Part shown: piece after piece, positions 26,299-63,072 of the stretch
Layout of the letters: every line of letters starts with the position of its first letter
How positions within the stretch are numbered: position 1 is the stretch's first letter
Assembly (NCBI GenBank): GCA_965205215.1
Contig: OZ242041.1
Location: forward strand, 544,001-608,000
From: Nitrosopumilus sp.
Lineage (GTDB): Archaea; Thermoproteota; Nitrososphaeria; Nitrososphaerales; Nitrosopumilaceae
Length of the DNA stretch: 64,000 nucleotides
Reading direction: 5' to 3'
Position numbers and translations under genes: made by a program
Notes under the pieces: generated by a model
The model's database searches: none
Told to the model about the DNA's origin: nothing
Seen by the model: only the letters and a program-made list of their open reading frames with translations

Positions 26299-26321
26299 TT
26301 ATAAGTAAATTTTTTTGACAG
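26299..26321 (+). promoter_or_regulatory. Archaeal TATA promoter of S-layer copy A
   Basis: TTATAA at 26299-26304, ~30 bp upstream of the ATG at 26334, followed by TAAATTTTTTTGACAG. Confidence 0.65.
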
Positions 26322-26333
26322 GCCATCAATAAC

Positions 26334-29300
26334 ATGCAAAACGAAATCTACAGAAAATATACTAGCATAACGCTAATGGCAATCATGGTCGCCGGAGGGC
26401 TGACCTTTGCGATACCAGGCGTGGACCCCGTGTTTGCGGAAGTGAGCACGTCCAACCCGCACCTGTACGTGTCTGCAGAGGGCCAGGACCCCGACAACAT
26501 CTTTGCCGAAGGAAACATAATCGAAGTAATCATAAGAGATGATACAATAGGAGATACCGACGAGGGAGAGGCAGAGCCAGAGGTTACCGTAAACGGTGCC
26601 GACCTGAGGATGCTTCAGACTGCCAACGGCTACTGGACGGCATACTTTGCCGAGGTGGACGCTCTGGCGGGCATTGATAGCCTCCCCTACGGCGAATACT
26701 GTACCGAGACCCAGGCATCAACGGTAACCGGCCTTCAACTAAGCGACGGCAACGGCATTTACCTGCCACCCGGTTCAAACTGCGCAAACGACTCCACTAC
26801 TGCCGACGGGCACCCCCTGATAAGGGAGCCCCGAGACCTGACTAACTATGACGGCAACTCGCTTGGACAGCTTGGACTGTCCAACGCGAACCTGTGGCCC
26901 TTCATCCAAGTGTTCGACTTTACGTCACTGTCTGACGTCGAGATCGTCTACAACAGGGGCGGCACCCAAGAGAGTGTCACCCTCACGTTTGACGACCCGT
27001 CAGAGTCGCACACACTAGACAGGCAAAAGTACCCGCAGGGCGCTCACGTGCACATCGCGCTGATGGACTATGCGCTAAACATAGACCCGACAGACGAGGA
27101 CACGTGGGTGTTCGACACCCAGAACGGTGCCGCATACTACAACCTGTTTGACGAGGACGGAAACGTCCTAACCGCGATGAACCCGGTGAGCGTAGGCTCT
27201 GAGGCCGGCATCGACGAGACCGTCAGCATAAACAGGGGCGCGCAGGGCAACAACGTGATCGAGTGCCAGGTGACAAAGGACTTTGGAATACAGGAGGAAG
27301 ATGACGCAAGCAAGGATTACCTGATGGTTAACGACTACGGCGCCTGCGTGCCCAACACGCTGGGCGGCAACGCTGCCGACCTGTTCAATGACGACAGCTT
27401 CGCGATAGGATTCGTGGAGGACGGCTCGAACAACAACGTGTTCATAAACTGGGCCGAGGACCAGAGGTCCAACATCGTCGTACTGGACGACGCGCTGAGG
27501 GGCAACAGCTTCGAGGTGGACTACAGCTCTCCGGACGCAAAGTCCGGGGTCGTAGGACACTTCTTTGCCGAGCTATCCCTCGACGTGTCTGACGGCGTCT
27601 GGAACTCTGGCGAACGCATACCCATCGTACTGACCGACATGGACGCCAACGTGAATCCCCTCGCAGAGGACGACCTCACGGTGGCCAATCCGAACAGCCT
27701 GCTGGTGCCATCAATCAGGATAGGTTCACCGGTTACGCTGGCGTCGGCCACGGGCGACGTGGAATGGGTCGACCTGGCAGAGGACGACAACACGGCACCG
27801 ACCATCACGCTCAACGGCGGCGACGTTACTCTGGTGCAGGGTACGACCTACACCGAGCAGGGCGCCGTATGTGACGACGACCGCGACGCGGACAAGGATG
27901 CAACAGCATCCGGCAACGTGGATGTCGATACGGCTGGCACCTACACGGTCACATACTCCTGCATGGACAACGCTGGAAACAGCGCAACGTCCGTAACCAG
28001 GACCGTAACCGTCGTGGAGGCCGACAACACCGCACCCACAGTCACGCTGAACGGCAATGCAGCCGCTACGGCGGTGCAGGGTACGACCTACAACGATCCG
28101 GGCGCCGTATGTAGCGACAACGTCGACGCGGACAAGACGGCCACGCCGTCCGGTACCGTAGACACCGCTACGCTTGGCCCCCAGACTATAACGTACACCT
28201 GTACTGACAGCTCTGGCAACACATCAACTGCTACTAGGACAGTAACGGTCGTAGAGGCCGACGAGGAGGCGCCCACAATCACGCTGAACGGCAATGCAGC
28301 CGACACGGTGGTGCAGGGCGGAACCTACACCGACCCGGGAGCCATATGTATCGACAACGTCGACGCACAAAAGGCGGCCACGCCGTCCGGTACCGTAGAC
28401 ACCGCTACGCTTGGCCCCCAGACTATAACGTACACCTGTACTGACAGCTCTGGGAACGAAGCGACGCCGGTGACCAGGACCGTAACGGTCGAAGAGGCCG
28501 ACACCGAGGCGCCCACAGTCACGCTGAATGGTGACGCCACCATCAGGATAGTGCAGGGCGGAACCTACACCGAGCCGGGCGCCGTATGTGACGACGCGGT
28601 CGACGGACAGTCGGCGGCCACGCCATCCGGCAACGTGAATACCAACGCGGTTGGCACCTATACGGTAACGTACACCTGTACGGACAGCTCTAACAACAGC
28701 GCAACTGCAGACAGAACAATCCATGTAGGACTGCCCGTGGTACTGGCGAACATCGTCAGGGACGCCGACGGATGGACCGACGGGGTGTACGAACTCACAG
28801 TGACAGGAACCGTATCCTCAGACGAGCGGGATGTAGAACTCACCACGGACGATATCGAGGACTTTATCCCGATTTCCGTGCCCGTAGCCAACGACGGCAG
28901 CATAAACGGCACGGTGGCTCTGACCAACATCGGGGCCTCCGGAGACATCACGTTCCAGCTGGTCTCTGCGCAAGGCGCCGAGTCAAACGAGTTTACCGTG
29001 AACATACCGCCGATACTGCAACTGTTCAGCATCCAGGCCGCACCACAGTGGGTTATTGCTGATCCTACTAATCTACAAGTTCCAAACCCCCAACTCGAAC
29101 TACGACTAAGTGGTAGTCACGGGGTGGGTAATGCACCATACAGTGTGAGTCTGGTTACGGTGGACGATCCATTAACCGCAGTAATACCGGGAGTCGTATT
29201 TACCAACGACGCTACCACAAGGAATATGAGTGACACCTCTATATCCGACAGAACCCAGTTTATGCTGGCAGTCGTGGTCGGCGACGAGGTCATTGCACAG

Positions 29301-32300
29301 TCAGGTGTTAGAGCCGCAACCATCCCGACGCTGCTGAGCGCAAGTATTGAACGCGCCGCCGCGTGGGGTGAAGGTACGCTTACACTGACGATAACCGGCA
29401 AGAACAACACTCTCGTCGTCGATAACGATGCGGATCTGATATACAAGATCGATCCCGACGCCGCCGCATACACCGTCGTCGGAGTCAACCCCTTCGTTGC
29501 TAACACGACCGGAGTATTCGGCACGGCGACCCTCGATACAGACGACTTCGCAACAGCTGGTGAGACGATAGACTTCCAGCTGGCAGTTCCAGACGAAAAC
29601 GGAATAACATCACCCAAGGTATCCGTGGACGTACCACCAATACTGACCCTTGATCCCATCACGATAGCTGGTACATGGAGTGGTGGAGCTACTCCTACAC
29701 TAACCCTGCGAGTATCGGGTAGTGAGGGAGTATCTGGCACCAGTGTGGACCTGTTCGTGAACGGGGCCGACAGCGGTCTGGACGTAACCTCTAATGCCGA
29801 TGGCAGCATAGCGACCACGGCATCATTTGCCGATGTCAGCGTATCTGGAGACGCAACGTTCCAGCTGAGATCAGGCGATGCAAGATCAGAGAACCAGACC
29901 GTGAACATACCTCCGGTGCTGACACTGAGAAGTGTTGCTCCATCTGGTACGTGGGAGAATGGTGAAATCGACCTTAGGATAGAAGGAAACACACTGTTAA
30001 CGGAAGGCACGGTTAACCTCATTTCACCTGACGTAACCGGCCTAACGATTGCAGTTCCAATAACTGGAGACGACTCAATCGCTTCTAACGGTGCCATTAG
30101 TGGCACGGTAACGCTTTCCAACATAGCCGTATCTGGAGCCACAAACTTCCAGCTGACGTCAGTTGTTGGAGCGAATACCGCAACGACAGAGAACCGGACC
30201 GCGAACATACCTTCGGTGCTGACACTGACAAGTGTTGTTCCGGGCTCATGGACGGGCACTTCGCCCAGCGAAACCATCGAGCTGGTCGTGACCGGCGCTT
30301 CTGGACTGCCCACTACTGCAACTGTCACTCTGCAGCTGGTTACCGGTAATGCCTCACTAACACAACCCACGGACACTCTTCCAGTTGCTAATGACGGCAG
30401 CATATTTGGAAGCGTAACCTTTGGAAATTCAGATCTAGCCGGAGATAATGTGTCATTCAATCTGACTTCTACAGTGGCCCCCAATGCTGCCACATCAAAC
30501 GCTCGGCCGGCCACTCTGCCGGCGCTGCCTTCAACCAGCAGCGTCGACATGATACCGACGCCGATATCCTCCCAGAACAGCGGGTTCCCGCCCATAACCA
30601 GGGCGGTAATCGGCGACATCTCGGAGATACCGGCGATACACAACGTGCAGTTCACCACCGACCAGACAATGGATCGGACCGTATACACATGGTCAGACGA
30701 CGACAAGACCGTCGAGGCGTTCAGCGACAGGCTCAGACTAGCCGAGCCGTCCGACAGGTACGCCATCGAGGGCAAGTCGAAGATCATCGTATACGGATGG
30801 GAGCCACCCACGTTTGCCGACGGTGTCACCACGCTGTTCAACTGGAACTTTGGCGGTATCAACTACGACGGTATTGCACCTGACGCAGTCATAACCGACA
30901 TCAGGCTTGCAAACGCGGCTCACAACCAGAGCGTGTCCCTGGGCGACGGTGCATCCGGCCTGGTGGACATCACCAGTATGGAGGATGACATCAAGGCCCT
31001 CGGAGACACCGTGGACCTGATCATCTTCATAGGAGACACCAACCTTGGCCACGTGTGCGGCGACCTCATGCTCGTAGCCGACTTCTTCACGTTCGGACAG
31101 AACGACGATGACGGCCGCGTGAACAACGCCATATACCGCATCGAGGTTGAGGAGGCAAGCAGCAACTCTGCTGACTATGAAGGCACGATCGAGTATACAA
31201 TGCTCAACCAGCTCAACATCGACGATCCCAGCACGTACACAGATCTGAGGCCCATCAGCGACCAGATATCGATCATAGTCCACGAGGACTTTACCGACGA
31301 GGATTCGGTCCGCGTGAACTATCTTGACCTGGGAGCCGACGGAGTGTCGACGCAGATAGCCATCCAGCAGGCGGCCCCGACGCACAGCGCCGTGGTCTCA
31401 TTCGACTCGGAGAGCTACAAGATCGCCGACACCGTCACCATAACGCTGGAGGACGCCGACCTGAACGTGGACAACGACGTCATAGACATCTACACGTTCT
31501 CAAACGTACACACCGACACGATCGGCGACGACGGCGCGTTCATACTGGACGTGACGTTCGACGACGAGCTCTGGACCTCCGGAGAATGTGAGGGAGCCGA
31601 CGGATTCTCATCCACCGGCTTTACGCTGCAGGAGACTACAGCAACCTCCGGCGTCTTTACGGGCGACTTCCAGATTCCAGAGGTATACTGCCAGTCGAGC
31701 ACCACCACCATGGTCTCAGTAACCGGCGTGGACATTGAGGTCAACTATCAGGACTTCCGTGACGCGTCCGGCGAGGAGATCGAGGTCGGGGCGGGAGCAG
31801 CGGTACGCGCCAACACCGGCACAGTATCGCTTGACCGCACCGTATACCCGGTGCCGTTCGAGGCAGGAGTGTTCGAGCACACCACCGGTACGCTCGGCCA
31901 GCACGATCTGACGGTCCACGTCACCATAGACGATCCGGACTTTGACATATCGGCTGCCGGCGAGGACGTAATCACCAACGCCACCGAGTACCTGACCGTA
32001 CAGGTCATACGCGGCTCGGCATCCTACACGATCGACCTCGAATCAGCGCAGATCCTCGAGACCGCGCCCGACAGCGGCGCGTTCGAGCTTGATCTGCCGC
32101 TCGCGTACAGCGACGGTCCTGACGGTGCTATCCTGCAGGGAGACATCCTGCAGGTCGAGTACCGCGACCCGACCGACGCATCAGGCGAGGAGAACACCGT
32201 CACAGACTCTGCCACGTTCGACCTGCGCAACGGCGTGCTCCAGTCAGACAAGTCCGTCTACATCATCGGCTCAGACATGATCCTGACGCTGATAGAGCCG

Positions 32301-33737
32301 GACCTTGACCTGGAGAACGACGGCGCCGAATCCTACACGCTCGACCTGATCGAGTGGGACTCTGACGCCGCCACACTGGGCATGAACAACGCAGTATTCG
32401 ATCCAGAGCCATCAGAGCTCCGTGAGACAGGCGACTCCACCGGAATATTCCAGGTGATCGCCGAGATTCCCGCGGAGATCGACGGCGACCGCCTCGAGAG
32501 GGGCGAGGAGATCGAGCTCGAGTACGTTGACTGGGGTCCGTCAGGAGCCGACTATGTCGGCGACGAGAGCGAGGATGTCGGCCTAACGGTCTACACCTCC
32601 AACTTTGGCGCGACCATCGAGCTGGACCAGAAGGTGTACACGTGGACCGACAAGGTCTACATCACCATCGTGGCGCCAGACCACAACTTCGACTCCGCTT
32701 TGGTGGATGAGATAGGCGACTCCAACCTCGACCCGATACAGGTGTCCACGCGCAGCGCCGACATCGACAACTACAAGCTTGTCGAGACCGGTCCTGACAC
32801 GGGCATCTTCACGGGAGAGGTGATCCTTATCGGATTCGACCACAACGCGGACGGCGACACCGAGACTGGCACCGACGCGGGTTACGACAACCCGCAGCGC
32901 GACACCAGTCCAGATGGAAGCGGGCCCACAAACGGCTACCTCCAGACCGACGATGACGACGGCATCACCGTCTCATTCGAGTACTCTGAGGACGAGACCG
33001 TGGTTGGATCCGCGCTCATCAGGTGGAACATTGGCGAAGTGCAGTGGCTCGAGTCATCGTACCCGGCATCCGGCACAGGCGTGGTCAGGGTCATCGACCC
33101 AGACATGAACTGGAACCCGGAGGCAGTGAACAACTTTGTAGTTGACGTGTGGTCAGACGCCGACAACGGCGGAATCGACCTCACGGTAACTGAAACCAAC
33201 GAGGCGACCGGCATATTCGAAGGCACGGTGTTCTTCACCATCACCGACGAGTCATCCGGGCACCGCCTCCGCGTGGCAGAGGGCAACACTGTAACGGCCG
33301 AATACGAGGACAACACGCTACCAGACCCATACACGACAGCAGACGAGCTTGACATCACGGCAACAACCCTGATCGGCACCATCGTGCCTCCGCTGGAGAG
33401 GGCGCCCGCAACCAACCTAAGGATTGTGGATGCATTCGGAAACAGCCTTGACACGGTGTCCGCCGACCAGCAGGTGCAGATCGTCGCCGACCTGGCCAAC
33501 GGCCAGGACCGCTCCCAGGCCTTTGCCTATCTGGTACAGGTCCAGGACGCCAACGGCGTCACGGTCGCACTGTCATGGATATCCGGAACGCTGGAGGCAG
33601 GACAGTCACTCAGCCCGTCAACATCATGGATTCCATCCGGCGCGGGAACCTACACGGCGACCGCGTTCGTATGGGAGTCAGTTGACAACCCGACTGCCCT
33701 ATCGCCGCCGGTCACAACGGACATCACCGTAAGCTAG
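26334..33737 (+). CDS. S-layer protein, copy A (putatively expressed), SlaA/Nitrosopumilus type with inserted Ig-like repeats
   Basis: N-terminus MQNEIYRKYTSITLMAIMVAGGLTFA, repeated ETG..TGIF modules and a C-terminal FVWESVDNPTALSPP, all typical of thaumarchaeal S-layer proteins. Highly acidic. Confidence 0.9.
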   Translation: MQNEIYRKYTSITLMAIMVAGGLTFAIPGVDPVFAEVSTSNPHLYVSAEGQDPDNIFAEGNIIEVIIRDDTIGDTDEGEAEPEVTVNGADLRMLQTANGYWTAYFAEVDALAGIDSLPYGEYCTETQASTVTGLQLSDGNGIYLPPGSNCANDSTTADGHPLIREPRDLTNYDGNSLGQLGLSNANLWPFIQVFDFTSLSDVEIVYNRGGTQESVTLTFDDPSESHTLDRQKYPQGAHVHIALMDYALNIDPTDEDTWVFDTQNGAAYYNLFDEDGNVLTAMNPVSVGSEAGIDETVSINRGAQGNNVIECQVTKDFGIQEEDDASKDYLMVNDYGACVPNTLGGNAADLFNDDSFAIGFVEDGSNNNVFINWAEDQRSNIVVLDDALRGNSFEVDYSSPDAKSGVVGHFFAELSLDVSDGVWNSGERIPIVLTDMDANVNPLAEDDLTVANPNSLLVPSIRIGSPVTLASATGDVEWVDLAEDDNTAPTITLNGGDVTLVQGTTYTEQGAVCDDDRDADKDATASGNVDVDTAGTYTVTYSCMDNAGNSATSVTRTVTVVEADNTAPTVTLNGNAAATAVQGTTYNDPGAVCSDNVDADKTATPSGTVDTATLGPQTITYTCTDSSGNTSTATRTVTVVEADEEAPTITLNGNAADTVVQGGTYTDPGAICIDNVDAQKAATPSGTVDTATLGPQTITYTCTDSSGNEATPVTRTVTVEEADTEAPTVTLNGDATIRIVQGGTYTEPGAVCDDAVDGQSAATPSGNVNTNAVGTYTVTYTCTDSSNNSATADRTIHVGLPVVLANIVRDADGWTDGVYELTVTGTVSSDERDVELTTDDIEDFIPISVPVANDGSINGTVALTNIGASGDITFQLVSAQGAESNEFTVNIPPILQLFSIQAAPQWVIADPTNLQVPNPQLELRLSGSHGVGNAPYSVSLVTVDDPLTAVIPGVVFTNDATTRNMSDTSISDRTQFMLAVVVGDEVIAQSGVRAATIPTLLSASIERAAAWGEGTLTLTITGKNNTLVVDNDADLIYKIDPDAAAYTVVGVNPFVANTTGVFGTATLDTDDFATAGETIDFQLAVPDENGITSPKVSVDVPPILTLDPITIAGTWSGGATPTLTLRVSGSEGVSGTSVDLFVNGADSGLDVTSNADGSIATTASFADVSVSGDATFQLRSGDARSENQTVNIPPVLTLRSVAPSGTWENGEIDLRIEGNTLLTEGTVNLISPDVTGLTIAVPITGDDSIASNGAISGTVTLSNIAVSGATNFQLTSVVGANTATTENRTANIPSVLTLTSVVPGSWTGTSPSETIELVVTGASGLPTTATVTLQLVTGNASLTQPTDTLPVANDGSIFGSVTFGNSDLAGDNVSFNLTSTVAPNAATSNARPATLPALPSTSSVDMIPTPISSQNSGFPPITRAVIGDISEIPAIHNVQFTTDQTMDRTVYTWSDDDKTVEAFSDRLRLAEPSDRYAIEGKSKIIVYGWEPPTFADGVTTLFNWNFGGINYDGIAPDAVITDIRLANAAHNQSVSLGDGASGLVDITSMEDDIKALGDTVDLIIFIGDTNLGHVCGDLMLVADFFTFGQNDDDGRVNNAIYRIEVEEASSNSADYEGTIEYTMLNQLNIDDPSTYTDLRPISDQISIIVHEDFTDEDSVRVNYLDLGADGVSTQIAIQQAAPTHSAVVSFDSESYKIADTVTITLEDADLNVDNDVIDIYTFSNVHTDTIGDDGAFILDVTFDDELWTSGECEGADGFSSTGFTLQETTATSGVFTGDFQIPEVYCQSSTTTMVSVTGVDIEVNYQDFRDASGEEIEVGAGAAVRANTGTVSLDRTVYPVPFEAGVFEHTTGTLGQHDLTVHVTIDDPDFDISAAGEDVITNATEYLTVQVIRGSASYTIDLESAQILETAPDSGAFELDLPLAYSDGPDGAILQGDILQVEYRDPTDASGEENTVTDSATFDLRNGVLQSDKSVYIIGSDMILTLIEPDLDLENDGAESYTLDLIEWDSDAATLGMNNAVFDPEPSELRETGDSTGIFQVIAEIPAEIDGDRLERGEEIELEYVDWGPSGADYVGDESEDVGLTVYTSNFGATIELDQKVYTWTDKVYITIVAPDHNFDSALVDEIGDSNLDPIQVSTRSADIDNYKLVETGPDTGIFTGEVILIGFDHNADGDTETGTDAGYDNPQRDTSPDGSGPTNGYLQTDDDDGITVSFEYSEDETVVGSALIRWNIGEVQWLESSYPASGTGVVRVIDPDMNWNPEAVNNFVVDVWSDADNGGIDLTVTETNEATGIFEGTVFFTITDESSGHRLRVAEGNTVTAEYEDNTLPDPYTTADELDITATTLIGTIVPPLERAPATNLRIVDAFGNSLDTVSADQQVQIVADLANGQDRSQAFAYLVQVQDANGVTVALSWISGTLEAGQSLSPSTSWIPSGAGTYTATAFVWESVDNPTALSPPVTTDITVS
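26359..26450 (+). repeat. 92-bp perfect inverted repeat, arm A (pairs with 57479-57570)
   Basis: Base-by-base comparison with the reverse complement of 57479-57570 shows no mismatch. Confidence 0.92.
27786..28728 (+). repeat. Four DUF5011/HYR-like Ig repeats (~79 aa) in S-layer A
   Basis: APT.TLNG...QG.TY...GA.C.D...TY.C.D...R motif starting at ~27786, 28023, 28260 and 28500. Confidence 0.8.
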
Positions 33738-33774
33738 CTAGTATATCACAGAAAACACAGAAAAAAATTCCCCC

Positions 33775-33789
33775 TTTTTTCTTTTTTTT
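33775..33789 (+). terminator. Oligo-T terminator of S-layer A
   Basis: TTTTTTCTTTTTTTT shortly after the stop. The same flank follows copy B. Confidence 0.65.
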
Positions 33790-33909
33790 ACTTTGGAACA
33801 ACAGCGGACGCTGTGACCGTCCATGCATGACATCCTTCCCCCTGACCTACCTAAGATCATGCGTAAAGTTCAGCCGCAATGCCGCGTTTCCGGCTATGTT
33901 GTTCTTTCA

Positions 33910-34008
33910 GGGTGTTAATCTAGAACATATAAAGAAATTTAGTGTAGTCAATCTGGAATATATAAAAGAGTTTAAGGTTAAAAATTTATAATATATAAAA
34001 AAGTTCTA
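33910..34008 (+). repeat. Three degenerate AT-rich 33-bp tandem repeats upstream of the ATPase gene
   Basis: aatctagaacatataaagaaatttag (33917), aatctggaatatataaaagagtttaa (33950) and aatttataatatataaaaaagttcta (33983). Confidence 0.7.
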
Positions 34009-50143: not shown

Positions 50144-53100
50144 CTAGCTTACGGTGATGTCGGTTGTGACCGGTGGTGACAGTGCAGTCGGGTTGTCAAC
50201 TGACTCCCATACGAACGCGGTTGCCGTGTAGGTTCCCGCGTCGGATGGAATCCATGACGTTGACGGACTTAGGGACTGTCCTGCCTCCAGCGTTCCGGAT
50301 ATCCAGGAGAGTGCGACCGTGACTCCGTTGGAGTCCTGGACCTGTACCAGATAGGCAAAGGCCTGGGAGCGGTCCTGGCCGTTGGCCAAGTCTGCCACGA
50401 TCTGCACCTGCTGGTCGGCGGACACCGTGTCAAGGCTGTTTCCGAATGCATCCACAATCCTTAGGTTGGTTGCGGGCGCCCTCTCCAGCGGAGGCACGAT
50501 GGTGCCGATCAGGGTTGTTGCCGTGATGTCAAGCTCGTCTGCTGTCGTGTATGGGTCTGGTAGCGTGTTGTCCTCGTATTCGGCCGTTACAGTGTTGCCC
50601 TCTGCCACGCGGAGACGGTGTCCGGAAGACTCGTCGGTGATGGTGAAGAACACCGTGCCTTCGAATATGCCGGTCGCCTCGTTGGTTTCCGTTACCGTGA
50701 GGTCGATTCCGCCGTTGTCGGCGTCTGACCACACGTCAACTACAAAGTTGTTCACTGCCTCCGGGTTCCAGTTCATGTCTGGGTCGATGACCCTGACGAC
50801 GCCTGTGCCGGATGCCGGGTACGATGACTCGAGCCACTGCACTTCGCCGATGTTCCACCTGATGAGCGCGGATCCAACCACGGTCTCGTCCTCAGAGTAC
50901 TCGAATGAGACGGTGATGCCGTCGTCATCGTCGGTCTGGAGGTAGCCGTTGGTGGGCCCGCTTCCATCCTCGCTGGTGTCGCGCTGCGGGTTGTCGTAAC
51001 CCGCGTCGGTGCCAGTCTCGGTGTCGCCGTCCGCGTTGTGGTCGAATCCGATAAGGATCACCTCGCCTGTAAAGATGCCCGTGTCAGGACCGGTCTCGAC
51101 AAGCTTGTAGTTGTCGATGTCGGCGCTGCGCGTGGACACCTGTATCGGGTCGAGGTTGGAGTCGCCTATCTCGTCCACCAGTGCGGAGTCGAAGTTGTGG
51201 TCTGGCGCCACGATGGTGATGTAGACCTTGTCGGTCCACGTGTACACCTTCTGGTCCAGCTCGATGGTCGCGCCAAAGTTGGAGGTGTAGACCGTTAGGC
51301 CGACGTCCTCGCTCTCGTCGCCGACATAGTCGGCTCCTGACGGACCCCAGTCCACGTACTCGAGCTCGATCTCCTCGCCCCTCTCGAGGCGGTCGCCGTC
51401 GATCTCCGCGGGAATCTCGGCGATCACCTGGAATATTCCGGTGGAGTCGCCCGTCTCACGGAGCTCGGATGGCTCTGGATCGAATACCGCGTTGTTCATG
51501 CCCAGTGTGGCGGCGTCAGAGTCCCACTCGATCAGGTCGAGCGTGTAGGACTCGGCGCCGTCGTTCTCCAGGTCAAGGTCCGGCTCTATCAGCGTCAGGA
51601 TCATGTCTGAGCCGATGATGTAGACTGACTTGTCTGACTGGAGCACGCCGTTGCGCAGGTCGAACGTGGCAGAGTCTGTTACCGTGTTCTCCTCGCCTGA
51701 TGCGTCAGTCGGGTCGCGGTACTCGACCTGCAGGATGTCTCCTTGCAGTATCGAATCGTCCGGACCGTCGTCATATGCGAGGCCAAGGTCAAGCTCGAAC
51801 GCGCCGCTGTCGGGCGCGGTCTCGAGGATCTGCGCGGACTCTAGGTCGATCGTGTGAGTCGCCGAGCCGCGTATGACCTGTACGGTCAGGTATTCAGTGG
51901 CGTTCGTAATTACGTCCTCGCCGGCAGCCGATATGTCAAAGTCCGGATCGTCTATGGTGACGTGGACCGTCAGATCGTGCTGGCCGAGGAAGCCTGTCGT
52001 GTGCTCGAATACGTCAGCTGCGAACGGCACCGGGTATACGGTGCGGTCAAGCGATACGGTACCAGTGTTGGCACGTACTGCTGCTCCCGCTCCGACCTCG
52101 ATCTCCTCGCCGGACGCGTCACGGAAGTCCTGATAGTTGACCTCTATGTCCACGCCGGTGACTGACACGACGGTGCCTGTGGCGCCGCCCTGGCAGTAGT
52201 ACTCGGGAATCTGGAAGTCGCCCGTAAAGACGCCGGAGGTTGCTGTAGTCTCCTGCAGCGTAAAGCCGGTGGATGAGAATCCGTCGACTCCGCAGCCGCC
52301 CGTCCAGAGCTCGTCATCAAACGTCACGTCCAGGATGTAGGCCTGGTCGTCACCGATGTAGTCCGCGAGTTCGCTTGAGAACGTGTAGATGTCGATGACA
52401 TCGTTGTCCACGTTCAGGTCGGCGTCCTCCAGTGTGATCGTGACCGTGTCGGCGACCTTGTAGCTCTCAGCGTCGAAGGAGACCACGGCGCTGTGCGTCG
52501 GGGCCGCCTGCTGGATCGCTATCTGGGTCGAGACTCCGTCGGCTCCCAGGTCAAGATAGTTCACGCGGACTGAATCCTCGTCGGTAAAGTCCTCGTGGAC
52601 TATGATGGATATCTGGTCGCTGATGGGCCTCAGGTCGGTGTACGTGCTTGGATCGTCGATGTTGAGCTGGTTGAGCATGGTATACTCCACGGTACCCTCA
52701 TAGTCAGCAGAGTTGCTGCTGGCCTCCTCCACCTCGATGCGGTATATGGCGTCGTTCACGCGGCCGTTCTCGTTCTGTCCGAACGTGAAGAAGTCGGCTA
52801 CGAGCATGAGGTCGCCGCACACGTGGCCAAGGTCGGTGTTACCTATGAAGATGATCAGGTCCACGGTGTCTCCGAGGGCCTCGATGTCATCCTCCATGGC
52901 GGTGATGTCCACCAGGCCGGATGCACCGTTGCCCAGGGACACGCTCTGGTTGTGGTGTACGTTTGCAAGCCTGATGTCGGTTATGACCGCGTCAGGTGCA
53001 ATGCCGTCGTAGTTGATACCGCCAAAGTTCCAGTTGAACAGCGTGGTGACGCCGTCGGCAAACGTGGGTGGCTCCCATCCGTATACGATGATCTTCGACT

Positions 53101-56100
53101 TGCCCTCGATGGCGTACCTGTCGGACGGCTCGGCTAGTCTGAGCCTGTCGCTGAACGCCTCGACGGTCTTGTCGTCGTCGGACCATGTGTATACGACGCG
53201 ATCCATTGTCTGGTCGGTTGCGAGCTGCACGTTGTGTACGGCCGGTATCTCCGCCATATTGCCGATTACGGCCCTGGTTATGGGCGGGAATCCGCTGTTC
53301 TGGGAGGATATCGGCGTGGGTGTCATGTCGACGCTGTTGCTGCTAGAGGGTGCCTGTGGCACTGTCACAGTAACGTTGTTTGAATACGCGGTGTTGGTAC
53401 CATCGTTTACTGTCAGTCGTACTTTGACAGGATTGCTCAGATCTACGGTATCAAGGGCAGAAATTGTCGCCGTGGTGAATATGCTACCGTCAGCTCCGGA
53501 TGTGACCGCTCCAACAGTAGCAACAGATGCCGTCGTGTGATCGGGCATCTCCAGGTTAACAGTCTGACCTGACGCTACCAACTCCGTACCGACTATTGCA
53601 AAGGTGAGCGCAGGGTCGTCAGAGTCTCCCGTAGTTACAGTGGCGCTGTCCAGGGTCAGTATAGGCGGTATGTTTGCCGTCACGTTGCCTGAGGTGGCGA
53701 TGTTGTCACCACTTCCTGCCTGTAGCCTGAATGTGGTAATACCGGACAGTGAGATGTCAGTGAGCTGTGCTGCGGTGGATATGGAAGCGTCCGCAGTGGT
53801 TGCGGACACAACATCACCTGGAACCAGTACAAATGCACCTTCTTTCAGTACGAACAGTTGAACAGCGTCACCACCTACCATTTCCGAACCGGTTACGTTC
53901 AACGTCAGTTGACCGTCCGTAACAGCGCCCCACGTTCTAAATGGAACGACACTGTCCAGAGTCAGCGCAGGTGGTATGTTTACCGTCATGTTGTCTGAAT
54001 AGGCAACGTTAGTACCAGTTCCTGCCTGCAGCCTAAAGTCGGTAGGACCGGACAGCGCGATGTGGCTTGTGGTCACGGTACCGAAAATGGTGCCGTCACC
54101 GGCAGTTGCAGTGCTAACATCAACATTTGCGAAGCCAGCTACAGCCTCGGATGGAACCAGATTGACGGTTCCACTAGCGAGTTCGCTGCCTGACAATCTC
54201 AGACTGAGAGAGCCCTCAGACCACGTACCTGGCAGTGATAGGCTGTCCAGCGTCACCACTGCGGGTATCGGCACGGAGACGCTGGGCGATGTGATGGTCG
54301 AACTTCCAAGCGCCAGCTTGAAGTCTACTGTCTTGCCGGATGTCGTGATGTCCACTAGGTCCGCGTCGCCGAATATTCCGGTCGAATTGACCACGAAGTT
54401 GGCCACTGTGACTGTGGCTGCGTTGGGATCGTCAGAATCGTACGTCAGGGTTGCAGCGCTTGTGATGGCACTCGGCAGCACGGTGTTGTTCGTGCCGGTT
54501 ATCACCAAGTCGAGTGAGCTGTCAGCCCACGTTCCATCTATGGCGATGTCTACATCCAGCAATACCGGAACGGTTGTGGATCTAGCGCCTGACTGTGCGA
54601 TGACCTCCCCATCTTCCACAACTACCAGTACAAACTGGGTGTTGCCGGTTATGGAGGCGTCAGTCATATTCCTTGTGGTACTGCCGTCGGTGGCGTCAAA
54701 TTCGATTTCGCTCAGACCTCTTAATGGGGATGCGGGATCGTCTAGTGTAGCCAGCTCCACGGTGTATCCTGGTGCCATACCCACTCCCTCACTACCTATC
54801 ATTCGTAGTTCGAGGTAGGGGGTCTGGGTGGTGTCAGTTGAACTTGCATCATCAATAACCCACTGTTGTGCAGCCTGTATGCTGAACAGTTCCAGTATCG
54901 GCGGGATGTTCACGGTAAACTCGTTTGACTCGGCTCCCTGCGGAGAGACCAGCTGGAACGTGATGGATCCAGAGGCTCCGATGTTGGTCAGGGCCACCGT
55001 GCCGTTTATGCTGCCGTCGTTGGCTACGGGTACGGAAACCGGGGCAAAGCCCTCGATGTCATCCGTGGTGAGCTGTATGTTCCGCTCAGATGAGGATACG
55101 GTTCCCGTCACTGTCAGCTCGTACACTCCGTTGTCCCACCCGTCGGCGTCCCTGACGATGTTCGACAGTACCACGGGCAGTCCTACGATGACTGATCTTT
55201 CTGCAGTTGCACTGTTGTTAGAGCTGTCCGTACAGGTGTACAGTACAGTGTAGGTGTTGACTATGCGGGTGTTTACGGTATCACCGGATACATCGGCCGC
55301 CTTGTCTGCGTCGACGTTGTCTTCACAGACGGCGCCCTGCTCGGTGTAGGTTCCACCCTGCACTATCCTGACGGTGGCATCACCGTTCAGCGTGACTGTG
55401 GGTGCCTCGGTGTCGGCCTCTTCGACCGTTACCGTCCTGTCTACCGGTGTTGCGTCGTTGTTAGAGCTGTCCGTACAGGTGTACGTTATCGTCTGGGGGC
55501 CAAGCGTGCTGGTGTCTACGGTACCTGACGGCGTGGCCGCCTTGTCTGCGTCGACGTTGTCTTCACAGATGGCTCCCGGATCGGTATAGGTTCCGCCCTC
55601 CATCACCGTGTCGGCTGCATTGCCGTTCAGCGTGATCGTGGGTGCCGTGGTGTCGGCCTCTATGACCTCTACGGTCCTGGATACGGACGTTGCTGGGTTT
55701 CCAGCGTCGTCCGTACAGGCGTACGTTATGGTGTATGTGCCAGTCGTAGCGGTATTTACGGTACCGGACGGCGTGGCCGCCTTGTCCGCGTCGACGTTGT
55801 CGTCACAGACGGCGCCCTGCTCGTTGTAGGTTCCGCCCTGCACTATTGTGACAGTGGCATCACCGTTCAGCGTGATTGTGGGTGCCGTGGTGTCGGCCTC
55901 CACGACGGTTACGGTCCTGGATACGGACGTTGCGCTGTTTCCAGAGCTGTCCGCACAGGAGTACGTTACCGTGTAGGTGCCAACCGTATTGACGTCTACG
56001 TTGCCGGACGGCGTGGCCGCCTTGTCCGCGTCGCGGTCGTCGTCACAGACGGCGCCCTGCTCGGTGTAGGCTGTGCCCTGCACCAGAGTAACGTCGCCGC

Positions 56101-57553
56101 CGTTGAGCGTGATTGTGGGTGCCGTGTTGTCGTCCTCTGCCAGGTCGACCCATTCCACGTCGCCCGTGGCCGACGCCAGCGTAACCGGTGAACCTATCCT
56201 GATTGATGGCACCAGCAGGCTGTTCGGATTGGCCACCGTGAGATCGTCCTCTGCGAGGGGATTCACGTTGGCATCCATGTCGGTCAGTACGATGGGTATG
56301 CGCTCGCCAGAGTTCCAGACGCCGTCAGACACGTCGAGGGATAGCTCGGCAAAGAAGTGTCCTATGACCCCGGACTTTGCGTCCGGAGAGCTGTAGTCCA
56401 CCTCGAAGCTGTTGCCCCTCAGCGCGTCGTCAAGTACGACGATGTTGGACCTCTGGTCCTCGGCCCAGTTTATGAACACGTTGTTGTTGGAGCCGTCCTC
56501 CACGAATCCGATGGCAAAGTTGCCGGGAGTGAATACCGTAGAAGCGCCGGCTTCCAGCTTGCCCTGATTGGGCACGCAGGCGCCGTAGTCGTCAACCACG
56601 AGATAGTCCTGGCTTGCATCATCTTCATTCTGGATTCCAAAGTCCTTTGTCACCTGGCACTCGATCACGTCGTTGCCCTGTCCGCCCCTGACGATACTTA
56701 CTGTCTCGTCAATGCCGGCCTCAGAGCCAACGCTGCTGATCTCGGAGTTCATCGCGTTTACCGGATTTCCGTCCTCGTCAAACAGGTTGTAGTACGCCGC
56801 ACCGTTCTGGGTGTCGAACACCCACGTGTCCTCGTCCGTCGGGTCTATGTTTAGCGCATAGTCCATCAGGGCGATGTGCACGTGAGCGCTCTGCGGGTAC
56901 TTTTGCCTGTCAAGTGAGTGTGACTCTGACGGGTCGTCAAACGTGAGGGTGACACTCTCTTGGGTGCCGCCCCTGTTGTAGACGATTTCCACGTCAGACA
57001 GTGACGTAAAGTCGTACACCTGGATGAACGGCCACAGGTCCGCGTTGGACAGACCAAGCTGTCCAAGCGAGTTGCCGTCATAGTTGGTCAGGTCGCGGGG
57101 CTCCCTTATCAGGGGGTGGCCTCCGTCGCCTACGTCTGCATTGGTACAGCTCGAGCCTGGCGGCAGGTAAATGCCGTTGCCGTCGCTTAGTTCAAGGCCA
57201 GTCACCGATGATGCCTGAGCCTCTGTACAGTATTCGCCGTAGGGGAGGCTGTCAATGCCCGCCAGTGCGTCTTCCTCGGCAAAGTATGCCGTCCAGTAGC
57301 CGTTGGCAGTCTGAAGCATCCTCAGGTCCGCACCATTTACGGTAACCTCTGGCTCTGCCTCTCCCTCGTCGGTATCTCCTATTGTATCATCTCTTATGAT
57401 TACTTCAATGATGTTTCCTTCGGCAAACATGTTGTCGGGATCCTGGCCCTCTGCAGACACGTACAGGTGCGGGTTACTCGTGCTCACTTCCGCAAACACG
57501 GGGTCCACGCCTGGTATCGCAAAGGTCAGCCCTCCGGCGACCATGATTGCCAT
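50144..57553 (-). CDS. S-layer protein, copy B (putatively silent; lacks the original start codon and an in-frame signal-peptide n-region)
   Basis: Near-identical to copy A in the N- and C-terminal parts but divergent in the centre. The ORF begins at the equivalent of copy A Met15, with an in-frame TGA 13 codons upstream. Confidence 0.88.
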   Translation of the reverse strand: MAIMVAGGLTFAIPGVDPVFAEVSTSNPHLYVSAEGQDPDNMFAEGNIIEVIIRDDTIGDTDEGEAEPEVTVNGADLRMLQTANGYWTAYFAEEDALAGIDSLPYGEYCTEAQASSVTGLELSDGNGIYLPPGSSCTNADVGDGGHPLIREPRDLTNYDGNSLGQLGLSNADLWPFIQVYDFTSLSDVEIVYNRGGTQESVTLTFDDPSESHSLDRQKYPQSAHVHIALMDYALNIDPTDEDTWVFDTQNGAAYYNLFDEDGNPVNAMNSEISSVGSEAGIDETVSIVRGGQGNDVIECQVTKDFGIQNEDDASQDYLVVDDYGACVPNQGKLEAGASTVFTPGNFAIGFVEDGSNNNVFINWAEDQRSNIVVLDDALRGNSFEVDYSSPDAKSGVIGHFFAELSLDVSDGVWNSGERIPIVLTDMDANVNPLAEDDLTVANPNSLLVPSIRIGSPVTLASATGDVEWVDLAEDDNTAPTITLNGGDVTLVQGTAYTEQGAVCDDDRDADKAATPSGNVDVNTVGTYTVTYSCADSSGNSATSVSRTVTVVEADTTAPTITLNGDATVTIVQGGTYNEQGAVCDDNVDADKAATPSGTVNTATTGTYTITYACTDDAGNPATSVSRTVEVIEADTTAPTITLNGNAADTVMEGGTYTDPGAICEDNVDADKAATPSGTVDTSTLGPQTITYTCTDSSNNDATPVDRTVTVEEADTEAPTVTLNGDATVRIVQGGTYTEQGAVCEDNVDADKAADVSGDTVNTRIVNTYTVLYTCTDSSNNSATAERSVIVGLPVVLSNIVRDADGWDNGVYELTVTGTVSSSERNIQLTTDDIEGFAPVSVPVANDGSINGTVALTNIGASGSITFQLVSPQGAESNEFTVNIPPILELFSIQAAQQWVIDDASSTDTTQTPYLELRMIGSEGVGMAPGYTVELATLDDPASPLRGLSEIEFDATDGSTTRNMTDASITGNTQFVLVVVEDGEVIAQSGARSTTVPVLLDVDIAIDGTWADSSLDLVITGTNNTVLPSAITSAATLTYDSDDPNAATVTVANFVVNSTGIFGDADLVDITTSGKTVDFKLALGSSTITSPSVSVPIPAVVTLDSLSLPGTWSEGSLSLRLSGSELASGTVNLVPSEAVAGFANVDVSTATAGDGTIFGTVTTSHIALSGPTDFRLQAGTGTNVAYSDNMTVNIPPALTLDSVVPFRTWGAVTDGQLTLNVTGSEMVGGDAVQLFVLKEGAFVLVPGDVVSATTADASISTAAQLTDISLSGITTFRLQAGSGDNIATSGNVTANIPPILTLDSATVTTGDSDDPALTFAIVGTELVASGQTVNLEMPDHTTASVATVGAVTSGADGSIFTTATISALDTVDLSNPVKVRLTVNDGTNTAYSNNVTVTVPQAPSSSNSVDMTPTPISSQNSGFPPITRAVIGNMAEIPAVHNVQLATDQTMDRVVYTWSDDDKTVEAFSDRLRLAEPSDRYAIEGKSKIIVYGWEPPTFADGVTTLFNWNFGGINYDGIAPDAVITDIRLANVHHNQSVSLGNGASGLVDITAMEDDIEALGDTVDLIIFIGNTDLGHVCGDLMLVADFFTFGQNENGRVNDAIYRIEVEEASSNSADYEGTVEYTMLNQLNIDDPSTYTDLRPISDQISIIVHEDFTDEDSVRVNYLDLGADGVSTQIAIQQAAPTHSAVVSFDAESYKVADTVTITLEDADLNVDNDVIDIYTFSSELADYIGDDQAYILDVTFDDELWTGGCGVDGFSSTGFTLQETTATSGVFTGDFQIPEYYCQGGATGTVVSVTGVDIEVNYQDFRDASGEEIEVGAGAAVRANTGTVSLDRTVYPVPFAADVFEHTTGFLGQHDLTVHVTIDDPDFDISAAGEDVITNATEYLTVQVIRGSATHTIDLESAQILETAPDSGAFELDLGLAYDDGPDDSILQGDILQVEYRDPTDASGEENTVTDSATFDLRNGVLQSDKSVYIIGSDMILTLIEPDLDLENDGAESYTLDLIEWDSDAATLGMNNAVFDPEPSELRETGDSTGIFQVIAEIPAEIDGDRLERGEEIELEYVDWGPSGADYVGDESEDVGLTVYTSNFGATIELDQKVYTWTDKVYITIVAPDHNFDSALVDEIGDSNLDPIQVSTRSADIDNYKLVETGPDTGIFTGEVILIGFDHNADGDTETGTDAGYDNPQRDTSEDGSGPTNGYLQTDDDDGITVSFEYSEDETVVGSALIRWNIGEVQWLESSYPASGTGVVRVIDPDMNWNPEAVNNFVVDVWSDADNGGIDLTVTETNEATGIFEGTVFFTITDESSGHRLRVAEGNTVTAEYEDNTLPDPYTTADELDITATTLIGTIVPPLERAPATNLRIVDAFGNSLDTVSADQQVQIVADLANGQDRSQAFAYLVQVQDSNGVTVALSWISGTLEAGQSLSPSTSWIPSDAGTYTATAFVWESVDNPTALSPPVTTDITVS
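55187..56135 (-). repeat. Four DUF5011/HYR-like Ig repeats in S-layer B
   Basis: Same APT.TLNG repeat motif as in copy A. Confidence 0.8.
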
Positions 57554-57570
57554 TAGCGTTATGCTAGTAT
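57479..57570 (-). repeat. 92-bp perfect inverted repeat, arm B
   Basis: Identical to 26359-26450 on the opposite strand. Confidence 0.92.
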
Positions 57571-57719
57571 GTTTTTGTAATTTTCGTTCTCACCCGCTGC
57601 CCCCGAGCACAAATCCTGCACCGCGGGCGTCTTTTACGCACGGCAGGCGGCCGTGCGGCGGACTGTCAAGAAAATTTATCTAGTTACGGATGTTTTTTGA
57701 CACGGCGCATTAAGTAAGA

Positions 57720-59366
57720 TTGGCACGCGTATGGTGTATGAACGGCAGGCCCGAGATCATGTATGCGGTCATGCGCAAGCCGACTGCCGCCGACTGTGAG
57801 CGGGCCAAGGTCCCGAAGAGGTTGGTGGGCATATTCGAGTCCTTTGAGCCCGGCAGGAGGTTCACCTGCAGGGAGATCTACAGCGAGCACAGGCCCCGCC
57901 TGCCGGAAAACGACTCCACTGCCATCTCGGTGGTGAGCCGCGGGCTTGCCGCGGTCGCAAAGACCGGCGCCCTTGACAGGGTGGAGGACGGGCACATACC
58001 CGACGAGTTTCTGGGCCTGAGGACCGTCTCGTTCTGGCTGGGACAGCTCCGCGGCAGCGCGAGGACCAACGTCGGCGGCTCCGGCAACACCACGCGCTCG
58101 TCATACGCGAGGCACCTGTGGCGCTTCAACAGGTGGCTTACAAGCGGCACGCACGAGATCCACGTGGCAAGGTACAGGGCCGGCAGGAGGAGGTGCTCCG
58201 GGGGGTGCACGGTGGCAGGCGGCTCCACCGCGCGCGTGAGCCAGGCCGCCTTTGGGAGCGTCGAGGACCTGATAGAGCTGCTGGCAAGGCCGCTGGCAGT
58301 ACGCTCGGACGTTGCCGTCATAGTAAAGCGGTACCTGATGGATCCGGCGCACCGGGGAAAGAGGGCGTCGACAATGACCTCTACCAGAAACGCCATCCTG
58401 TCATACTTCAAGCGCAACGAGCAGCGTCTCGAGGTCGCATTTGATCCCGCCGCCACATACGACACCACGGAGACGGTCCAGACGCTCACGCTCGGGGACG
58501 TGCGCGAGATGCTGACCGCAGCGGGCCCCACCATAGTGGAAAAGGCCGTAATGCTCTGCAAGCTGCACAGGGGGCTTGACGTCTCCACGCTGATAGACCG
58601 GTTCAACTTTGAGGCCTGGGGGCAGATGGCGCGCCACTTTGGATCGGAGGATCATCATATGTGGGACCTAGGCAGGTGCCCCGTGCCCATCACGCTGACG
58701 CGCCTGAAGACGGGGTACACGCACCTGGGATTCCTGGAGCGGGACGCGGTGGCCGCCGTGCAGGAATACCTGGACTGGCGCCGCTCAAGGACGGGGCGCG
58801 ACATGAGCGGGGACCTCCCACTGTTCCTGTCGAACGCGCTAAAGCCCATCGGGAGCGGGTGGGTGACAAACGCGTTCTCGAGGCTGGCCTGGGGCTCCGG
58901 CGTGCAGCAGAAGACCGGCAAGAACTCGTGGCGCGTGGACTCGCACGAGATGCGCTCCCTCCTAAAGTCCACGCTCATAGAGTGCGGCTGCCGGATGGAC
59001 GTGGCAGACCACGTGATTGGGCACAAGCCAAAGGACACGTATGAAAAGCAGTTCATCCTTTACGGGGAGACCGTGAGGGCCGAGTACGCAAAGGCGGCCC
59101 ACCTGCTCAACATATTCAGCGGGCCACGGGGAGAGGGCGGAGGAGGCGCCGGCGGTTTGGGCAAAGACGACCAGGCCGATATGCGCGCAGTCCGCGACAG
59201 GCTGCAGCAGATGATGCGTGCGGGGGGCTCCCCGGATCCCGACGCGCTGATCGGCGAGGTCGCAAGGATCATCTGCATGAGCAACAGGCACGCAAGGGAG
59301 ATCCGGGACGCGATCGGGGCCCTGTGCGTCGGCATAAAAGATGGTGCATACGCGCGCGGCACATGA
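57720..59366 (+). CDS. Tyrosine recombinase with extra N-terminal wHTH-like region
   Basis: TRSSYARHL core-binding region, HRGLDVSTL box I variant, RLKT, SHEMRSLL (HxxR), DHVIGH and Tyr in DTYE. Start uncertain (57720-57771). Confidence 0.8.
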   Translation: MARVWCMNGRPEIMYAVMRKPTAADCERAKVPKRLVGIFESFEPGRRFTCREIYSEHRPRLPENDSTAISVVSRGLAAVAKTGALDRVEDGHIPDEFLGLRTVSFWLGQLRGSARTNVGGSGNTTRSSYARHLWRFNRWLTSGTHEIHVARYRAGRRRCSGGCTVAGGSTARVSQAAFGSVEDLIELLARPLAVRSDVAVIVKRYLMDPAHRGKRASTMTSTRNAILSYFKRNEQRLEVAFDPAATYDTTETVQTLTLGDVREMLTAAGPTIVEKAVMLCKLHRGLDVSTLIDRFNFEAWGQMARHFGSEDHHMWDLGRCPVPITLTRLKTGYTHLGFLERDAVAAVQEYLDWRRSRTGRDMSGDLPLFLSNALKPIGSGWVTNAFSRLAWGSGVQQKTGKNSWRVDSHEMRSLLKSTLIECGCRMDVADHVIGHKPKDTYEKQFILYGETVRAEYAKAAHLLNIFSGPRGEGGGGAGGLGKDDQADMRAVRDRLQQMMRAGGSPDPDALIGEVARIICMSNRHAREIRDAIGALCVGIKDGAYARGT

Positions 59367-63071: not shown

Positions 63072-63072
63072 T

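Follow-up and report, generated by a model that had tools for sequence, protein, structure and literature searches.

The window analysed here is a stretch of 64,000 nt (positions 544,001 to 608,000 of contig OZ242041.1, assembly GCA_965205215.1) from the genome of a Nitrosopumilus sp., which consists of a single contig of 2,098,239 bp and is called G000 below. It contains two long surface-layer (S-layer) genes that face each other and, next to one of them, a gene for a tyrosine recombinase. Copy A (26334–33737, plus strand) encodes 2467 aa and has the full MQNEIYRK N-terminus. Copy B (50144–57553, minus strand) encodes 2469 aa when read from an internal ATG (MAIMVAGG...); its open reading frame (ORF) is intact and has neither a canonical start nor the charged N-terminal region. 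The two genes are convergent, with copy B inverted and 16 kb away from copy A, and are 80% identical (BLASTP, 1995 of 2495 aligned positions). An earlier note on this DNA, made from the letters alone, had read two facing S-layer genes of about 2,470 aa as a candidate switching locus with an expressed and a silent copy; the pair and its nature are borne out by the lengths and identity just given and by the family assignment that follows.

As judged by homology, Ig-like array and acidity, copies A and B belong to the thaumarchaeal S-layer family of NmSLP, the S-layer protein of N. maritimus. Copy A matches that protein (PDB 8c8k, 1734 aa) with E=0 and 1370 bits in three stretches; residues 129–567 align to chain residues 162–619 of 8c8k and residues 1927–2467 to 1194–1734, and no PDB sequence with E up to 1 matched the central residues 801–1520. 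Four stretches of the PF16403 Ig-like domain were found in each copy with Pfam. The pI is 4.05 for both copies (D+E versus K+R: 388 versus 80 in A, 400 versus 77 in B), strong acidity being a criterion for NmSLP-type proteins in the available text of PMC11153153.

Homology between the two copies takes the form of inverted blocks at both ends: a 5′ block of 429 nt (26354–26782 / 57147–57575, 94%) and a 3′ block of 2088 nt (31706–33793 / 50088–52175, 95%). A further 56-nt pair (33775–33830 / 50047–50102) extends the homology about 93 nt beyond the stop codon, and the copy A arm of the 3′ homology with this flank spans 31706–33830 in the inverted-repeat comparison. These are the long near-identical blocks, with some 95 bp of shared 3′ flank, that had been recognised before. 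Exact-run comparison likewise confirmed the perfect 92-bp 5′ repeat of the earlier note, which encodes part of the signal peptide and lies at 26359–26450 in copy A and 57479–57570 in copy B. Nucleotide identity in windows is 81–94% over 26442–29120, 39–65% with many gaps over 29121–30473 and 82–99% over 30474–33767, with 98–99% across 32268–33467, so that the proposal of differing central cassettes is upheld.

This variable central block occupies 29121–30473 in copy A (plus strand, about 1.4 kb) and 53340–54847 in copy B (minus strand, between repeat arms I3 and I6). It is an array of modules of about 95–105 aa; the module motifs of copy A are spaced by 92–100 aa, with one interval of 209 aa, and their register is the same in A and B. 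No BLASTN match to positions 3001–4200 of the copy A gene was found in any other S-layer gene examined. The variable windows of copy B match the body of the expression-site gene of L041 (see below) at 80–85% nucleotide identity by BLASTN. The variable block holds 8 of the 14 N-X-S/T sequons of copy A and 7 of the 11 of copy B. Since NmSLP glycans lie mostly on the outermost domains, according to the available text of PMC11153153, an exposed position of the block is plausible by analogy.

Relatives were found by scanning genome contigs with the first 489 residues of copy A; the same query (residues 1–489) recovered only four distant loci from metagenomes, at 30–34% identity. Two relatives are central here. 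L041 is the expression-site S-layer locus of genome G075, an incomplete metagenome-assembled genome (MAG). The related genome G073, present as two strain haplotypes, has a promoter-bearing S-layer copy (S1) and a recombinase-side copy (S2). A gene for a putative DUF4344 metallopeptidase (24590–25969, plus strand; Pfam PF14247, E 4e-57) forms the conserved left flank of the expression-site gene: it adjoins the promoter-bearing copy in L041 (92% amino acid identity to that of G000) and in both G073 haplotypes (61%). For this flank and for the G073 and L041 comparisons, only tblastn matches above 60 bits were considered. The G000 metallopeptidase gene itself contains a 9-nt tandem repeat (14 registers, 24966–25136) encoding a Thr/Pro-rich linker.

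The 5′ ends of the two copies differ. The promoter region of copy A (26293–26333, plus strand) carries TTATAAG at 26299–26305, which from its position would be a TATA box; it lies 35 nt before ATG 26334, a distance that fits a leaderless or very short-leader mRNA. This promoter and start stretch is near-identical in L041, L047 and S1 of both G073 haplotypes, and the TTATAAG core is kept also in the more distant L044 and L046. Alignment of four expression-side copies showed 2–7 variable columns per 30 from −110 to −21 of the MAIMV ATG and none from −20 to +9. L044, at 58% amino acid identity the most distant of the full-length copies compared, still has the N-terminal sequence MQNE(I/N)YRKYTS(I/L)TL. 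L046, the second copy of genome G074, was rejected as a contrast, as it is only a 510-aa N-terminal paralog.

Copy B has instead a leader (57554–57680, minus strand) made up of a promoter remnant, a GC-rich insertion, an out-of-frame GTG (57593–57591) and an A5 tract (57576–57572). The remnant is the 18-nt sequence GATAAATTTTCTTGACAG at 57680–57663 of the minus strand, 127 nt upstream, and is homologous to the part just downstream of the copy A TATA motif. Neither the TTATAAG motif nor the ATG of the copy A start is present. The ATG has decayed to GTG and two 1-nt deletions have occurred, so that this GTG is out of frame and its reading ends at a stop 9 codons on. From the stop codon upstream as far as the internal ATG (57553), there is no ATG, GTG or TTG in frame. 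That ATG is in frame and is followed by the hydrophobic signal core. The leader gave a non-significant RNA fold z-score of −1.65, and Rfam at gathering threshold found no family anywhere in the window, leader included. In G073, the leader of S2 has the same layout, with a remnant, a longer GC-rich insertion and no ATG, which has become GCG with a 1-nt insertion. Thus both recombinase-side copies have lost TTATAAG and ATG, the latter by different mutations. The earlier note had attributed a TATA box and a full start to copy A only; this holds for the motif and the start codon, and has to be amended in that copy B, with its promoter remnant, is not wholly promoterless.

We joined the two genes virtually in the 92-bp repeat. 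The copy A start fused to the copy B body gave an open frame of 2483 aa to the first stop, in agreement with the earlier expectation that a crossover there would place the promoter and first codons in frame with copy B. The reciprocal product, the copy B leader joined to the copy A body, meets a stop at codon 9 and has no usable start.

The recombinase gene (57720–59366, plus strand) is divergent to copy B and encodes 548 aa from a TTG or, more probably, 542 aa from ATG 57738; it starts 145–163 bp beyond the copy B 5′ repeat, depending on which of these is used, as against the 150 bp or so given before. Its identity as a tyrosine recombinase is established by the model fold, the domains of homologs and invariant residues. 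By itself the protein matches Pfam PF00589 at E 8e-4 with 19.6 bits, under the 27.1-bit cut-off. PF00589 is nevertheless carried by 66 of the 94 homologs listed, which match the protein at E 1e-124 and weaker, making it a divergent member of the family rather than a non-member. Among the homologs, orthologs P0002–P0008 are 83–95% identical to it. With a profile built from 22 homologs, PDB sequences yielded no match at E up to 0.01, and the protein has no PHROGs and no NCBIfam match. Foldseek with an AF2 model (pLDDT 76.4) listed 34 PDB structures with E up to 0.001, the best being XerA (5hxy, 9e-8) followed by lambda Int, Tn1549 Int, XerH, IntI and Cre. Tyrosine recombinases share the catalytic pattern R...HxxR...H/W...Y. 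In all 22 aligned homologs R328, H409, R412, H435 and Y441 are invariant, and Y441 is the predicted nucleophile. The gene is intact and under purifying selection (dN/dS 0.25–0.29 versus G073).

Four further paralogs with 42–46% identity exist in G000. Each of the five copies, which represent four independent loci, has an ORF of at least 1200 aa within 2.6 kb, compared with 14.5% of random positions, and three of the five (paralogs R3 and R4 and the recombinase of the window) are divergent to the 5′ end of a giant gene. The giant genes near the other paralogs lack an inverted partner like that in the A/B pair. The positions of these paralogs (C1:84613, 1223450, 1225497 and 1974282) mark edges of giant repetitive gene arrays. 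Elsewhere in G000, three giant plus-strand genes (~1228008, 1110690 and 982311) share upstream sequence and first codons at 79–88% identity over about 300–650 nt, which may mean that giant surface proteins have a promoter and signal module in common.

Comparison with related genomes showed that a start-less copy and the recombinase are linked there too. In G073 (megablast matches of at least 400 nt, tblastn above 150 bits), the gene order is DUF4344, S1 with promoter and ATG, convergent start-less S2, divergent recombinase, TnpB, AAA_14 and the rest of the block that in G000 lies between copies A and B. The G073 recombinase is 87–89% identical to that of G000 and divergent to S2. A short contig of G058 carries a B-type leader, a recombinase (92%) and AAA_14; no main S-layer gene is assembled in this genome. 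At least two species thus conserve the unit of start-less copy and divergent recombinase, and its leader-recombinase part is partial evidence for a third. Probably, the ancestral arrangement had this unit directly against the 3′ end of the resident S-layer gene. In G000 the unit stands on the far side of most of the interior block (33881–49612), which keeps the same orientation, and is followed by about 100 kb non-syntenic with G073 at this place (matches of at least 500 nt). The unit has hence moved as a whole, being intact while both neighbourhoods changed.

Some comparisons were set aside. Reasoning from synteny, we found no single inversion, and no two inversions with end points in the S-layer genes, that would convert the G073 order into that of G000. 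Contig_1 of G073 was rejected as an inversion isomer, being the second strain haplotype. The spacers between the convergent genes of the two G073 haplotypes share no asymmetric sequence, so their orientation is not comparable. One of these spacers (C2:40471–41587) contains a repeated element of about 1.1 kb, with copies of 83–91% identity in G000 at ~997771, 1760801 and 2015379. The end of G073 contig 2 (L056) has, after a second recombinase copy, some 5.5 kb at 69% GC; this stretch showed no similarity to G073 contig 1, to the first 80 kb of contig 2 or to the G000 genome, and may be a chimeric join or a foreign insertion.

Traces of exchange are visible in the S-layer genes. S1 and S2 of G073 do not differ at all from codon 1400 to the end, while pS is 0.03 in the N-terminal part; together with the near-identical A/B tracts, this identity shows ongoing homogenisation between paired copies. 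L041, scored at 1300 sites where A and B differ, is a mosaic that is A-like, then B-like, then A-like again. It follows A in the flank and the first 400–800 nt of the gene (121 A, 14 B and 18 neither at 26000–26400), has a B-like body (136 B versus 19 A at 29600–30000, 172 versus 20 at 30000–30400) and returns to A at the 3′ end (9 A, 0 B and 1 neither from 33200). A B-type body is therefore found at the expression site in this sister lineage, bounded by two exchange points. The mosaic is compatible with an exchange between the two positions, brought about either by a pair of crossovers or through a conversion tract.

The reading frame of copy B bears the mark of selection. From the shared internal ATG, 2469 codons are open in B and 2328 in G073 S2. 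C-terminal dN/dS is 0.05 for B versus G073 S2 and 0.036 for A versus G073 S1; the N-terminal values are 0.23 and 0.255, and those of the variable block range from 0.38 to 0.71 in the six pairs compared. By these ratios, recombinase-side copies are as constrained as expression-side copies. The variable block of copy B has no conversion donor in the G000 genome; its alignment to L041 runs through 495 codons, at dS 0.29, with no stop codon, and by a rough estimate neutral drift over that distance would have brought in several. The strongest argument from sequence that copy B is used, though not from its own start, is that its body is intact and under selection, whereas the start region in front of it has decayed independently in two species.

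The sequencing runs holding the locus (24 listed) are mostly labelled sponge metagenome. Run data were Logan k-mer contigs in 24 of 24 runs, and X1, X3, X17 and X18 were compared with window positions 49500–59500. One X1 contig of 4052 nt covers 57541–59500 with 0 differences and 0 gaps; the A5 tract is thus present in reads and the copy B frameshift is no obvious assembly error. Other X1 contigs cover 53287–55022, which includes the copy B variable block, again with 0 differences, and the contig over 56118–57192 differs from both reference copies. Among the read-contig differences listed, 39 of 40 are copy-A bases. Depths in X1 are 32–47 for A- or B-specific S-layer sequence, 88–120 for single-copy flanks and ~148 for the shared 5′ block; the lower depth of the S-layer-specific contigs relative to the flanks suggests that several alleles coexist in one host sample.

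X17 and X18 are RNA libraries from other strains and provide weak hints only. In X18, a contig that includes the shared 5′ block continues into start codons of the A type instead of the copy B leader, and then into adapter sequence. Conserved parts have RNA depths of 47 and 103 (two X17 contigs, 3′ sequence) and of 33–268 per bin in X18. Both libraries run into a third variable sequence that is absent from the G000 genome. No RNA contig lies over the copy B leader, the recombinase gene, 49500–50167 or, in X18, 53508–54843, gaps that are not evidence of absence.

Taken together, these results are compatible with a two-copy S-layer variation locus, consisting of an expression site and a linked reserve copy that exchange sequence by recombination; in our judgement its chances are evenly balanced. 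Copy A, behind a strongly conserved promoter and a leaderless-type ATG, would make the coat protein. Copy B would be silent in place and kept as an intact, constrained reserve reading frame of 7.4 kb with a different central array, the array holding most of the glycosylation sequons. If the long inverted blocks recombined, the central block of copy B would come to lie behind the promoter and start of copy A. This could happen by a crossover in the 5′ block (26354 to ~29100), which would flip ~24–31 kb and create the in-frame fusion. Alternatively, a tract delimited by the 5′ and 3′ blocks could be converted, with the same outcome and no inversion. Exchange would in this way switch expression, presumably within physiological times; the S-layer would present a different exposed face while its lattice-forming ends stay constant.

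The recombinase that travels with copy B might catalyse or stimulate this exchange. Its linkage, the purifying selection acting on it and the precedent of the archaeal integrase Int-pTN3 (see below) speak for its participation, which we put forward tentatively and regard as rather doubtful; given kilobases of A/B homology, ordinary homologous recombination alone could suffice. The fullest version, in which a dedicated recombinase inherited with the start-less gene drives programmed exchange of an exposed module array, so that a sponge-dwelling archaeon could vary its entire coat against viruses or host recognition, seems to us unlikely.

S-layer switching by recombination between inverted homologs is known in bacteria, at sap of Campylobacter fetus and slpA/slpB of Lactobacillus acidophilus. 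The present locus resembles these in its opposite-orientation homologs with shared 5′ sequence, one with promoter and start and the other, by sequence, a complete and start-less putative reserve, and in that a 5′ crossover would swap the expressed body. It differs in belonging to an archaeon, in its ~7.4-kb genes with homology at both ends and in the recombinase gene beside the reserve copy. Moreover, the segment that would flip here is 24–31 kb of housekeeping genes, in contrast to a small promoter cassette or 6-kb segment in slp and sap, and inversion, known there, is here a proposal. Inversion loci with an adjacent tyrosine recombinase are known in Mycoplasma (vsa/HvsR of M. pulmonis, vpma/Xer1 of M. 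agalactiae). These share with the present locus, as proposed, one expression site, start-less reserve surface genes and the tyrosine recombinase gene beside them, but use short defined 5′ sites, whereas here no dyad-symmetric site was found, the homology extends over kilobases and there are two copies only.

Closer in phylogeny is the N. maritimus pair Nmar_1547 (NmSLP) and Nmar_1201, whose products are 91% identical and differ centrally (residues 911–977), one gene being highly and the other lowly expressed (PMC11153153, in the text available). The likeness lies in the common family, in paralogs differing mainly in a central segment and in the dominance of one of them. For that pair, the accessible parts of PMC11153153 and PMC12448741 describe no inverted linkage, start loss or recombinase, and the minor gene is transcriptionally regulated; the proteins here are also ~730 aa longer, with a lineage-specific central module array. 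Int-pTN3 of Thermococcus nautili is an archaeal tyrosine integrase that inverts chromosome segments between identical stretches of at least 104 bp (PMC8371274, as far as its available text goes), in comparison with exact runs of 92–218 bp here. Inversions between integrated elements are likewise known in Thermococcales. Int-pTN3 is, however, plasmid-borne, rearranges the genome with no known benefit and is not tied to a surface-gene pair. A literature search by title and abstract found no description of recombinational S-layer switching in Archaea, the N. maritimus S-layer papers dealing with structure or expression.

Several observations, given in this and the next two paragraphs, weigh against switching by exchange. 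The 92-bp repeat had been singled out in the earlier note as the exchange site; it is joint ninth among the longest exact A/B runs, and a dyad-site search of the 5′ repeat revealed no inverted repeat of at least 8 nt within 40 nt in 26290–26470, so that its standing as a special site is not supported. The missing dyad core counts against a classical invertase system, not against working by recombination. The longest exact run measures 218 bp (33267–33484), another of 125 bp being at 27675–27799; as the longest runs sit in the 3′ block, a crossover there would leave the expressed variable block unchanged. No inversion isomer and no recombinant junction was seen, only the reference junction, in the X1 contig where the copy B repeat is followed by the recombinase gene; as k-mer contigs end within the 92-bp repeat, linkage across it and hence inversion is unreadable in them, and they could not show an alternative. 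The L041 mosaic fits equally well with a foreign allele replacing the body of copy A in the G000 lineage, and in G075, the incomplete MAG that holds L041, one main S-layer gene and no recombinase are seen. A cassette swap between the G073 haplotypes was dropped as evidence; the mosaic is weak, the variable windows of the partner gene being closer to S1 of haplotype 1 in two of five windows (90 and 81% versus 78 and 68%) and similar in the rest. Gene conversion from A could hold the conserved parts of copy B open without selection on B. What remains in favour of the overall switching proposal is the geometry, the in-frame fusion, the identity of the S-layer and recombinase genes and the comparative support; what tells against it is that the repeat is not special, that the relocation is a translocation and that the recombinase family is integrase-like.

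The main competitor, to which we accord a sizeable minority share, is that A and B are ordinary dominant and minor S-layer paralogs. Copy B would then be expressed under specific conditions, attachment within the host for example, from its own distal promoter, through the GC-rich leader and the internal ATG (or, in G073, the upstream GTG), its similar ends would reflect structural constraint and occasional gene conversion, and the recombinase would be an unrelated integrase. N. maritimus offers a model, as it has such a dominant and a low-expressed paralog, the minor Nmar_1201 being upregulated in biofilm with no recombination invoked in the available text of PMC11153153 and PMC12448741; sponge-associated ammonia oxidisers both encode and express several S-layer-like proteins (PMC6790972, from the text at hand), and several S-layer gene copies are common in the genus. 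The promoter remnant of copy B and its in-frame ATG with hydrophobic signal core make weak or conditional expression in place conceivable, the G073 S2 frame is open upstream to two GTG codons, and B-type variable sequence occurs at depth 2–8 in parts in X17, with a depth of 0 in X18. This explanation has to accommodate the loss of the conserved N-terminal extension by both recombinase-side copies through different mutations and the lack of the TTATAAG core in copy B, whose leader shows neither significant structure nor Rfam match and has no RNA contig cover, though a gap in contig cover proves little. It also leaves unexplained why, in G073 and G058, changes among the neighbouring genes have not parted the recombinase from the start-less copy.

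Mobility offers another account, in which copy B and the recombinase are a small cassette of integrase and S-layer cargo that inserts close to the resident S-layer gene, or recombines with it, and spreads alleles between strains, the inverted pairing with A being a by-product; we consider this improbable. The position of the G000 unit beside an unflipped interior indicates translocation and not inversion, and this change relative to G073 and G058 suggests mobility: the unit abuts the 3′ end of the resident gene in G073, with a matching recombinase-AAA_14 junction in G058, and is 16 kb off in G000, next to the ~100 kb of non-syntenic DNA. The recombinase family is found in 16 of 61 genus genomes sampled, at up to seven matching places per genome with decayed copies included; close orthologs are present in 3 of 151 genus genomes and one homolog, in Cenarchaeum symbiosum A, is named integrase. 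Such a patchy, multi-copy and partly decayed family is typical of mobile-element integrases, and integrated elements in the phylum can carry S-layer-type genes (PMC6563490, in its available part). However, the ends of the G000 unit share no direct repeat of at least 11 nt (at least one arose by chance in 20 of 200 shuffles), a search that would miss very short att sites, which can be 8 bp in the phylum according to the accessible text of PMC8371274. The unit also contains no other mobile-element genes, its recombinase has no PHROGs counterpart, the only tRNA gene of the window (ARAGORN) is at 1601–1675 and hence not near it, and a cargo gene would be expected to bear its own working start. Least probable by far is an assembly artefact that placed two strain alleles of one S-layer gene as an inverted duplication. 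The depth gap in X1 between S-layer-specific sequence and flanks, which implies several strains with other alleles, would suit it, as would the disturbed G073 assembly at this place, where the second haplotype forms a contig of its own and one contig end is duplicated. But A- and B-specific sequences are both found in X1, each with its own distinct upstream sequence, the junction of copy B leader and recombinase is contained in a single contig without differences, the paired architecture recurs on one long G073 contig and the B-type leader with recombinase in G058, and the flanks of A and B are different and independently conserved.

If the variation locus operates as proposed, Archaea would have in it their first described case of programmed surface variation, one that affects the S-layer, which is the whole exposed surface of these organisms and, in the text available from PMC11153153, an ammonium-gathering device of N. 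maritimus. Exchange of the glycosylated central part with retention of the lattice-forming ends would explain how ammonia-oxidising archaea persist inside a virus-rich, filter-feeding host. Should a dedicated recombinase drive the exchange, its four paralogs beside other giant genes for surface proteins might point to a wider family of such switches. It also gives a divergent archaeal recombinase family a concrete candidate function. Even if A and B were ordinary paralogs, the S-layer paralogs of this clade evolve in concert as a pair, around a hypervariable centre, and the locus is an assembly-breaking hotspot.

The interior block that an A/B crossover would invert spans 33881–50034. By Pfam, it encodes an AAA_14/DUF4143 ATPase, an Lrp/AsnC regulator, a UbiA prenyltransferase, a TnpB element, cytochrome b, a Rieske protein, an HFX_2341-like protein, ThiF, a PLP enzyme and ORFs of 483 and 148 aa. 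Its part 33881–49612 is syntenic and in the same orientation in G073, but lies outside the S-layer gene pair there. The TnpB-only insertion element (38102–39590, plus strand; NCBIfam guided_TnpB, E 3e-36) is a recent insertion and no part of the switch: its site is empty and uninterrupted in G073, where a 92%-identical copy stands right after the recombinase gene, other copies being 67% identical. The ThiF-family gene of the block (45442–47013) is fused to a ThiS-like domain, and a second one is found at 61686–63071.

In the remainder of the window, 5046–22563 has no counterpart in the otherwise syntenic G073 region, and 59380–64000, to the right of the recombinase, has no syntenic counterpart there, with short scattered matches only. 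Three large minus-strand ORFs (1039, 679 and 1166 aa) fall in 9338–17863, where GC and AT skew are strongly negative. The tRNA gene at 1601–1675 is called as tRNA-Arg (TCG) by ARAGORN, but has no match in the Rfam scan, and GC drops to 42% in 1–2000 and 62001–64000, compared with 55–65% elsewhere.

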